From an uncultured Candidatus Saccharibacteria bacterium (lineage in GTDB: Bacteria > Patescibacteriota > Minisyncoccia > Phycocordibacterales > UBA2100), in assembly GCA_964545165.1 (NCBI GenBank), contig CAZJEQ010000004.1, positions 17,716-81,715 on the forward strand: a stretch of 64,000 nucleotides of DNA, given 5' to 3'. Of the stretch, positions 18,928 to 46,317 are shown one piece after another. Below the pieces are notes generated by a model. The model did not search any database, had not been told where the DNA came from, and saw only the letters and a program-made list of their open reading frames with translations. The position numbers and the translations under genes were made by a program. The stretch's first letter is position 1. The number at the start of each line of letters is the position of its first letter.

Positions 18928-18999
18928 AGCGGGGTGGAGCAGTAGTAGCTCGCCAGGCTCATAACCTGGAGGTCGGGGGTGCAAGTCCCTCCCCCGCAA
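18928..18999 (+). tRNA. tRNA-Met (CAT), initiator-like
   Basis: Cloverleaf AGCGGGG..CTCATAA..; unpaired 1:72 (A:A); close to E. coli tRNA-fMet (CGCGGGGTGGAGCAG...CCCCGCAACCA); CCA not encoded. Confidence 0.8.
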
Positions 19000-19003
19000 C
19001 ATG

Positions 19004-19039
19004 AAGACAAAACACTCGCTTTCGCGAGTGTTTTGTCTT
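19004..19039 (+). terminator. strong terminator hairpin after the tRNA
   Basis: Perfect 16-bp palindrome AAGACAAAACACTCGC-tttc-GCGAGTGTTTTGTCTT. Confidence 0.6.
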
Positions 19040-19049
19040 AGGGCGACTT

Positions 19050-19229
19050 CTAATCGTTGAGAATACTAATGACTACTTGTGCAATGAGTCCGACAAGGAG
19101 AAATACGAGCGCGATCCAAAATGGCTTCCATACCCAAAAGAAGACCGCCTGCATTGCCGTATAGACGAAAAAGATAAAGACGAGGGGAAGCACCACGAAG
19201 GAGTTGAACATGAGAATCTTGTTCCACAT
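19050..19229 (-). CDS. small membrane protein (59 aa)
   Basis: MWNKILMFNSFVVLPLVFIFFVYTAMQAVFFWVWKPFWIALVFLLVGLIAQVVISILND; TATACAAT 6 nt upstream (leaderless). Confidence 0.4.
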   Translation of the reverse strand: MWNKILMFNSFVVLPLVFIFFVYTAMQAVFFWVWKPFWIALVFLLVGLIAQVVISILND

Positions 19230-19306
19230 GGTTGCATTGTATACCTTTTCAGGTGTGCTCTCCCGCTCGCAAAAGAGCAAGATTTGCGATATTCTCTCGG
19301 GTAACG

Positions 19307-19383
19307 TCGGGGTAGCTCAGTCGGTTAGAGCGAGCGTTTCATAAGCGCTAGGTCGTGGGTTCGAATCCCACCCTCGACACCAA
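19307..19383 (+). tRNA. tRNA with CAT anticodon (elongator Met or Ile2-lysidine)
   Basis: GTCGGGGTAGCTCAGTCGGTTAGAGC...TTCATAA...GGTTCGAATCC...CACCA; CCA encoded. Confidence 0.85.
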
Positions 19384-22795: not shown

Positions 22796-22871
22796 TGGAG
22801 CCGCCTCGCAGATTTGAACTGCGGACCCCCGCTTTACGAAAGCGGTGCTCTACCAACTGAGCTAAGGCGGC
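22796..22871 (-). tRNA. tRNA-Thr (CGT)
   Basis: Reverse complement GCCGCCTTAGCTCAGTTGGTAGAGCACCGCTTTCGTAAAGCGGGGGTCCGCAGTTCAAATCTGCGAGGCGGCTCCA; CCA encoded. Confidence 0.85.
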
Positions 22872-22951
22872 GAACCTGCACATCCTACGGTATTACACTT
22901 GGTTTTTCAATCAAACTCGGCTATTCTCACTTTGTTCCATCAAAATAGTAA

Positions 22952-23024
22952 GCCGATGTAGCTCAGTTGGTAGAGCACGTCATTGGTAATGACGAGGTCT
23001 CCGGTTCAATCCCGGACATCGGCT
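22952..23024 (+). tRNA. tRNA-Thr (GGT)
   Basis: GCCGATGTAGCTCAGTTGGTAGAGCACGTCATTGGTAATGACGAGGTCTCCGGTTCAATCCCGGACATCGGCT. Confidence 0.85.
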
Positions 23025-23074
23025 CAAAGAAGTGTGCTCTCGCGCGGCGCAGTCGTGCACCTTATACTGCTCGC

Positions 23075-30877: not shown

Positions 30878-30948
30878 TGCGGGATCGTCTAATGGTAGGA
30901 CTACTGCCTCTGGAGCAGTGTATCTTGGTTCGAATCCAAGTCCCGCAG
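30878..30948 (+). tRNA. tRNA-Gln (CTG)
   Basis: TGCGGGATCGTCTAATGGTAGGACTACTGCCTCTGGAGCAGTGTATCTTGGTTCGAATCCAAGTCCCGCAG; U1-A72, G73 as in bacterial tRNA-Gln; CCA not encoded. Confidence 0.85.
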
Positions 30949-31118
30949 CAAAATGAGCTTCGCGAATTTTGCGAAGGGATTTGGATTCGAACGGGAAAGG
31001 GGTCGGGAAAACACCTTGTTTTCCCGTGGAGGAAGGTATGGGAAAACCGTGGGCGCCCCGAAGAAAGTACCCTTGGGGTGTTTCCCAGGGGTTCGCAGTC
31101 CAAGTCCCGCAGCAAAGT
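30949..31118 (+). other. structured 170-bp element ending in a partial direct repeat of the tRNA-Gln 3' end
   Basis: 31090-31118 GGTTCGCAGTCCAAGTCCCGCAGCAAAG versus the tRNA 3' end GGTTCGAATCCAAGTCCCGCAGCAAAA (18/18 identical core); internal helices GGGAAAACACC/GGTGTTTCCC, TTTTCCC/GGGAAAA, CTTCGC/GCGAAG. Confidence 0.4.
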
Positions 31119-31157
31119 TGAAATCGAGGTGTTTGGTCGGCACAGTATACTTATCGT

Positions 31158-46242: not shown

Positions 46243-46317
46243 TTGCCTTGCGAAGTTCCTGGCTCCGTCGGCCCCAAGTCCCGCACCAAGCTCAACGAAG
46301 CCCTCGCAGCTCTCTAG
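46243..46317 (+). pseudogene. remnant duplicate of the 3' end of the GH18 gene (PG-binding domain C-terminus)
   Basis: GGCTCCGTCGGCCCCAAGTCCCGCACCAAGCTCAACGAAGCCCTCGCAGCTCTCTAG encodes GSVGPKSRTKLNEALAAL*, about 75% identical in nucleotides to 45392-45449 (GSVGPKTRAKLNELLTSL*). Confidence 0.4.

Follow-up and report, generated by a model that had tools for sequence, protein, structure and literature searches.

A tRNA-Gln locus with a candidate miniature insertion element, one copy of an apparently undescribed family with target-matched arms

The described systems closest to the locus presented here are the tRNA-targeting integrative elements (prophages and genomic islands with a tyrosine integrase) and the integrase-less CIMEs derived from them, which insert in the 3' portion of tRNA or protein-coding genes, supply a replacement for the gene end and leave the displaced end behind as a direct repeat. 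Their crossover region lies in the T loop, their occupancy is patchy and they accrete in tandem at one site. MITEs and REP/REPIN-type sequences (Correia, RUP, BOX, ERIC, REPIN) form a second group of small, non-coding, intergenic, hairpin-forming, multi-copy repeats mobilised in trans, with constant terminal repeats and target duplications of a few bp. In the attP(+) hairpin of CTX phage (an IMEX) and in integron attC, an imperfect hairpin stem imitates a duplex site and holds a fixed unpaired region by the crossover; non-autonomous forms carry no recombinase in cis, and one recombinase serves one type of site (dif, attI/attC). The bridge RNA of IS110 is a conserved, structured non-coding module of ~180 nt with two loops, flanked by target-covarying segments, while tmRNA combines a T-loop-related motif near its 5' side with a tRNA-like 3' end. 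Bacteria of the CPR (Patescibacteria) have tiny genomes in which few mobile elements have been recognised.

The element described below lies in a window of 64 kb, by which the whole stretch of DNA that was analysed is meant, and belongs to a family that shares the above properties of the tRNA-targeting integrative elements. Its members, on the other hand, measure only 110–180 bp, contain neither integrase nor cargo, carry an extra inverted copy of the target and use one core at 38 or more target genes; this core was absent from the phage, plasmid and viral collections searched (INPHARED phages, PLSDB plasmids and IMG/VR; three different patterns and the tRNA 3' end). Of the hallmarks of insertion at a tRNA attachment site, a direct repeat bounding an insert beside an intact tRNA was found in the window and at 77 tRNA-linked loci, and empty as well as occupied sites were found among relatives, but an integrase and cargo between the repeats were not. 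In a comparison with MITEs and REPs, the family shows many copies of a conserved core; their terminal arms, however, are not conserved but match each neighbouring gene, being inverted and direct copies of 22–50 nt of a gene end. The bias of pairing towards one strand recalls the CTX attP and attC hairpins, although the stem of the family varies with each target, and the comparison is a mechanistic analogy only. The family differs from IS110 bridge RNAs in consisting of two simple hairpins within 60 nt, in carrying long target copies instead of short guides and in having no adjacent IS110-type recombinase gene.

The target in the window is a tRNA-Gln(CTG) gene at 30878-30949 on the + strand (ARAGORN; Rfam RF00005, 59.7 bits), and the coordinates of the window element refer to the same strand. 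The last ~22 nt of this gene, from the T loop at 30928, make up a segment (B) that the element copies twice. The direct repeat of the tRNA 3' end reported in an earlier note on this DNA proved real, since TCCAAGTCCCGCAGCAAA occurs exactly at both 30935-30952 and 31099-31116 (18/18 nt), and with GGTTCG and a 1-nt T-loop indel included, the similarity widens to about 30928-30953 versus 31091-31118. With up to three mismatches allowed, TCCAAGTCCCGCAGCAAA has three matches in the window, a number that none of 100 shuffles equalled. The match at 46273-46290, CCCAAGTCCCGCACCAAG, has three mismatches, and no tRNA was called there. A third, inverted copy, which the note had overlooked, was found by a repeat search at 30966-30992 and is 85% complementary to 30928-30954. 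The layout of the locus is consequently read as the tRNA end (B), a turn, the inverted copy (B'), a core of ~90 nt and the direct copy (B*).

The spacer or "turn", AAAATGAGCTTCGCGA (30950-30965), closes the long B/B' hairpin as its loop and contains GCTTCGC, which in reverse complement reads GCGAAGC, a mini-hairpin motif that occupies this position in other copies. It is followed by the left arm B' (30966-30992, 27 nt, ATTTTGCGAAGGGATTTGGATTCGAAC), the inverted copy of the tRNA 3' end and trailer, which pairs with B in the DNA fold and with the distal copy B* in the RNA fold. A purine leader, GGGAAAGGGGT (30993-31003), mirrors the 5' strand of core hairpin 1, CGGGAAAACA CCT TGTTTTCCCG (31004-31026), itself a perfect inverted repeat of 10 bp. 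The conserved linker TGGAGGAAGGTA occupies 31027-31038 (family consensus GTGGAGGAAGGNN, of which the first G is the final base of hairpin 1) and leads to core hairpin 2, TGGGAAAACCGTGGG ... TTTCCCA (31039-31087), as delimited by alignment and consensus fold. The right arm B* (31089-31118), a partial direct copy from the T loop to 4 nt past the tRNA end, contains the exact 18-mer and has its T-loop bases changed from GTTCGAATCC to GTTCGCAGTCC. Hairpin 2, 22 nt in its standard form, bears an insertion of ~27 nt at about 31054-31080 in the window, where the core measures 90 nt versus 60–63 nt in the family.

A covariance model of the core matches the window at 30993-31063 (61.9 bits, E = 5.5e-16), and neither pattern searches nor the model run with filters off detected further element copies in the 64 kb. 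The other five tRNAs of the window are followed by plain hairpins and no element. Among them, two tRNA-Met genes lie 300 nt apart (18928-19382), a perfect 16-bp hairpin (19004-19039) following the first, and divergent tRNA-Thr(CGT) and tRNA-Thr(GGT) genes form an 80-nt inverted repeat (22796-23025). The description of the stretch between the repeats as free of ORFs holds loosely: mechanical ORFs do cross it. One of them, a 27-codon ORF at 31038-31121 placed behind GGAGGA, is not treated as a gene, given that homologues preserve neither its product nor its frame relative to the right arm (L33 loci, two junction variants).

Blocks conserved between the window and one relative, L010, were combined into a 21-nt pattern for the core motif, GTGGAGGAAGGNNTGGGAAAACC. 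The linker between the hairpins is part of this pattern, so that its constancy among the matches is forced in part by the search. The core, present once within the window, was found by this pattern in at least 120 stretches of metagenome contigs, where a few would be expected by chance (an estimate, not a computed value). From among the matches listed, 122 instances were studied, and a profile search counted 132 copies in these 122 sequences; in eight loci, further copies, more diverged, were located close to the initial one. Of two tRNA-Leu genes that follow one another in L116, each has an element of its own.

In all 122 instances the core is flanked by two locus-specific arms that correspond to the gene beside them. 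At least the last ~22 nt of the upstream gene appear in reverse complement as the left arm, and the right arm is a direct copy that runs from a fixed breakpoint to the exact gene end. At the 77 tRNA-linked loci analysed, the right arm starts ~2 nt past the core and copies the tRNA from about -22, in the T loop, to between 0 and 3 nt beyond the tRNA end, and the left arm often extends through the trailer into a long palindrome. Right arms scored higher against the upstream sequence than every shuffle in 86/113 loci. Pairing between left and right arms is stronger within a locus than across loci (medians of -20 versus -13 kcal/mol), as is that between the left arm and the upstream target (-30 versus -18 kcal/mol). 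The left arm is a better complement of the intact upstream copy than of the right arm, so the stem formed by the two arms is possibly not the helix that matters biologically. The core-proximal bases of the right arm are systematically altered, from GTTCGAATCC to GTTCGCAGTCC, from GTTCAAATCC to GTTCTTRTCC and from CTGCAAATGG to CTGCTTGTGG; the left arm, by contrast, is complementary to the unaltered motif.

The family core spans GGGGTCGG to TTTCCCAG, and seven copies, that of the window included, have insertions in hairpin 2. The other six (L020, L032, L038, L059, L065 and L128) show that these loop insertions range from 27 to 60 nt, the window version being a shortened one, with a consensus of ...GGGCGACCAATTT..GGCGGTAWTCCGC..GAAGTACYC..GGTG... 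that has no Rfam match. In the second copy of L116 and in the distal element of another locus, L076, an insert sits between GGAGGAAGG and hairpin 2. Among spacers, the motif GARCGAAGYGA recurs at many loci, and a unit of the GCGAAGC type is often present; GCGAAGC is an extraordinarily stable DNA mini-hairpin (PMC13037366).

Because the window element belongs to a family that is widespread and apparently undescribed, it is more than an oddity of a single locus. A keyword search of the literature returned no description of such an element, which does not prove that none exists, and Rfam 15 holds no family for the window element or for the long-core variants. The hosts are putatively Parcubacteria-like (CPR) bacteria; the proteins flanking the window element, Maf and a 159-aa membrane protein encoded upstream, have their best homologues in Paceibacteria/Parcubacteria MAGs. 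On balance, we lean towards reading 30950-31118 as the integrated copy of a miniature (about 110–180 bp), non-coding, non-autonomous insertion element, from a family in which each lineage is tied to one gene end. Of the three options that the earlier note had offered for the insert, a miniature integrative element fits best, given variable occupancy, tandem copies in L076 and a start in the T loop.

The range of targets is broad. Most instances (84/122) lie 48–149 nt downstream of a tRNA on the same strand, and 34 anticodon classes are represented; about 30 copies have no adjacent tRNA and are mostly located at the 3' end of rpmG (L33) or rpsI (S9). Further copies, assigned through Pfam, occur at the 5' ends of RNase H and GT4 glycosyltransferase genes, in the opposite gene orientation. 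Since targets comprise tRNAs and both the 3' and the 5' ends of protein genes, the common factor is a gene end and not tRNA biology or the orientation of the gene. More than 38 different targets carry one nearly identical core, its invariance being partly forced by the search pattern, and this is hard to reconcile with ordinary sequence-specific recombinases. Three elements (L125:9200-9470, with tRNA-Gln arms; L020; L099) have arms of the tRNA type and no tRNA within 200 nt upstream, and are apparently relics after the loss or rearrangement of the target gene.

At protein-gene targets the direct copy spans 40–50 nt and ends at the stop codon. Where the 5' end of a gene is the target, inspection by eye indicated that the distal copy keeps a start codon of its own (GT4 in L117, RNase H in L061), with a longer N-terminus too in L117. 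Of 78 codons compared between the two copies at six rpmG loci, 44 differ synonymously and 4 non-synonymously, an excess of synonymous change which indicates that both copies have been shaped by selection on the protein. The duplication corresponds to a displaced functional gene end, as found at the attL and attR of integrative elements. A target-site duplication, and with it a decaying scar, was ruled out by this 44:4 ratio.

Turning to structure, the region in the window folds far better than shuffled sequences (z = -4.3 as RNA, z = -5.8 as DNA). Among the helices first proposed from the window sequence, CTTCGC/GCGAAG was borne out (30958-30976, the turn of the long hairpin); GGGAAAACACC/GGTGTTTCCC and TTTTCCC/GGGAAAA are possible in the window copy, but 100 homologues favour other pairings, namely hairpin 1 (31004-31026, covarying) and hairpin 2 (31039-31087). 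Five pairs of hairpin 1 show compensatory changes among these homologues, for example AU<->GC in 35. Hairpin 2 is invariant in the alignment of 100 sequences, part of it having been fixed by the search pattern, and the GGAGGA between the hairpins is fully conserved, an invariance of the core that the exact-match pattern likewise forced in part. The duplex between the arms is the more stable on the + strand in 75 loci versus 24 (99 with a difference, of 101 analysed; p = 2e-8), and hairpin 1 has no preference for that strand.

Much of this would also be expected of a family of structured non-coding RNA genes, an explanation that we judge unlikely though the strongest of the alternatives, in which the core is a functional RNA and the arms form a closing stem mimicking the minihelix of acceptor and T stem. 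Such a minihelix could permit processing by RNase P or RNase Z, or pairing with the tRNA precursor, the spread of the element then being a by-product. The compensatory changes in hairpin 1, the conserved GGAGGA, the RNA fold z-score, the greater stability of the arm duplex on the + strand and the termination of the right arm at the tRNA 3' end +0 to +3 all agree with it. Against this, about a quarter of the copies lie at the ends of protein genes, in either gene orientation, and structure cannot explain a coding right arm of 40–50 nt with almost only synonymous differences. Moreover, in many copies a hairpin resembling an intrinsic terminator separates the element from the tRNA, no promoter-like site was found on the + strand at the window element, and no Rfam family matches.

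For an insertion element, the strand bias of the arm-arm duplex suggests selection on one single strand, and a single-stranded form is suggested by this bias together with the mini-hairpin turn of the GCGAAGC type. Position -1 of the leader equals position +1 of hairpin 1 in 86/99 homologues versus 52 expected by chance. The purine leader precedes GGGGTC, and its mirror symmetry with the 5' strand of hairpin 1 spans 30993-31012 in the window. Judged from its sequence, this pattern may represent a homopurine mirror repeat or a purine-motif base triple, as in intramolecular triplexes resembling H-DNA.

Somewhat less likely again is a cassette that spreads with no recombinase at all, by natural transformation and homologous recombination, with the intact gene as the left homology arm and the duplicated end as the right one. 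It draws on the exact coincidence of the end of the direct repeat with the end of between-species conservation, at the tRNA end or the stop codon, on differences between the two gene-end copies that resemble those of diverged alleles and on the lack of a recombinase nearby. The right homology, however, amounts to only 18–50 nt, and the cassette leaves unexplained the inverted copy, the constant junctions adjacent to the core, the systematic base changes at the left-hand end of the right arm and the conservation of a 60-nt core.

The behaviour expected of an insertion element is most directly seen at the tRNA-Gln locus of relatives, ranked here by the identity of the protein upstream of tRNA-Gln. 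The comparison proposed in the earlier note distinguished empty sites (L002, L135, L137) from occupied ones (the window, L010) and from a tandem arrangement (L076), and occupancy is patchy among relatives. In L002 (81%) the next gene begins after 31 bp, with the site empty; L135 (72%) and L137 (71%) are also empty, the tRNA of the latter being identical to that of the window. L133 (82%) is probably empty, the 23 visible nt after its tRNA-Gln being unlike the element spacer. L010 (69%) is occupied by a shorter homologous element, whose distal copy matches the tRNA variant of L010 itself. A different GC-rich filler of ~170 nt occupies the tRNA-Gln site of L136 (70%; L136:1575-1760), between the tRNA and a direct copy, AATCCAAGTCCCGCAGCAAAG; the spacer after the tRNA is similar, AAATTAGCGCAGCAATAATTTGCG, and the acceptor variant of the direct copy is that of the tRNA in the window, not that of L136. 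The core covariance model did not recognise this filler and had no match at the empty sites of relatives.

At L076 (1909-2323, - strand) two elements follow tRNA-Gln in tandem and the tRNA end is present in three copies, in the order full tRNA, element E1, a 22-nt copy, 24 nt, a 44-nt partial tRNA, a diverged element E2 and a decayed copy. The 44-nt partial copy begins in the anticodon loop, a breakpoint suggestive of another type of insertion at this tRNA-Gln. By spacer and right flank, the window element is of the distal E2 type, with which it shares its type of spacer, and that of L010 is of the proximal E1 type, which implies independent insertions by two lineages specific for tRNA-Gln. 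The insertion reading had been tied to variation in occupancy or to other copies of the core; across genomes, both clearly exist.

That the window element is instead the scar of a larger island or prophage, once carried into a tRNA-Gln attachment site by an integrase and since deprived of its interior, was also suggested in the earlier note and now appears very improbable. A direct repeat of the tRNA 3' end is what such a scar would leave, and gene content downstream of tRNA-Gln, up to the conserved genes that follow, does differ among relatives. More than 120 loci at dozens of targets nevertheless share the same compact architecture and conserved core, with no cargo gene between the repeats at the loci studied (in the window, the repeats enclose only ~150 bp) and no match to the core among phages, plasmids or viruses in the collections named above. 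A degenerate or miniature tmRNA or tRNA-like gene, suspected on the resemblance of GGATTTGGATTCGAACGGG to the tmRNA 5' end and on the tRNA-like 3' end that follows, can practically be discarded, as the motif (GGATTTGGATTCGAAC) is tRNA-Gln's own T loop and T stem read in reverse complement and changes with each neighbouring gene, no tmRNA was found in the window by ARAGORN or by Rfam at gathering score or even at E <= 10, the distal copy can form no T arm on inspection (its T-stem 5' strand is replaced, leaving GGGGT unpaired versus CCAAG), the candidate acceptor 5' strand differs between the window and L010, acceptor pairing is not conserved, and a tag reading frame is lacking.

Under the favoured reading of a miniature insertion element, the incoming DNA would have entered the tRNA-Gln 3' end at the T loop, bringing the conserved two-hairpin core, a hairpin turn and two versions of the gene end, one as its replacement and one inverted. 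The displaced original end would remain downstream as the partial direct copy and the gene would stay intact. As the element encodes no enzyme, its movement must rely on machinery supplied in trans. We infer a single-stranded intermediate, the kind of recombinase involved and which of the copies derives from the donor; the active form would be a folded single strand in which the paired arms imitate the target duplex and hold a constant mismatch bubble beside the core. Our best guess, by analogy with the hairpins of CTX-phage attP and integron attC, is a site-specific strand exchange between this folded hairpin and the target.

A more far-reaching proposal, which we regard as doubtful at present, takes the core as the scaffold of a nucleic-acid-guided integration, in which the arms, one complementary and one identical to the target, would choose the site by base pairing, such that a single enzyme in trans could serve dozens of gene ends and provide each with a recoded rescue end. 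The agent might be single-stranded DNA, folded so as to contain a purine triplex and turns of the mini-hairpin type. If true, this would represent a natural, programmable "insert-and-rescue" element in CPR bacteria.

A search for mobilising enzymes revealed no recombinase, transposase or reverse transcriptase recurring within 5 kb of 120 copies; when the 1464 ORFs in these flanks were clustered, all recurrent families were of the housekeeping type and none occurred in more than 10 loci. Neither an excised or circular form nor a pair of empty and occupied sites inside one population was seen. A diversity-generating retroelement was also considered and rejected, as differences between B and B* include T->C and C->G besides A->N (by eye) and no reverse transcriptase lies near the copies.

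If the reading as insertion elements is true, enzyme-less units of ~120 bp that settle at the ends of tRNA, ribosomal-protein and other genes and always restore the gene would add a new layer to CPR genome dynamics. The presence of one core with target-matched arms at dozens of genes poses the question of how the target is recognised and how new arms are made, and recognition by base pairing, should it apply, would be of interest to genome engineers. On a practical level, the partial tRNAs and copies of gene ends left by the elements can be mis-annotated.

Homing-endonuclease-like genes seem to share these hotspots. Near seven copies, ORFs of 220–238 aa that combine an HTH with a LAGLIDADG-like motif are located next to tRNA genes, outside the repeats (L068:6937-7597, L028, L048, L051, L065, L103 and L113). 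A LAGLIDADG-like ORF is present at L134:1938-2261 in place of the tRNA-Gln of relatives, and in L135 a GIY-YIG-like ORF sits between the upstream gene and tRNA-Gln. Repeats of the family also seem to break short-read assemblies at tRNA genes. Among the Logan short-read contigs of the window's strain, L001 begins at ~31076, inside the element, and L132 stops at ~30828, ~50 bp before the tRNA, positions that are consistent with repeat-induced assembly breaks.
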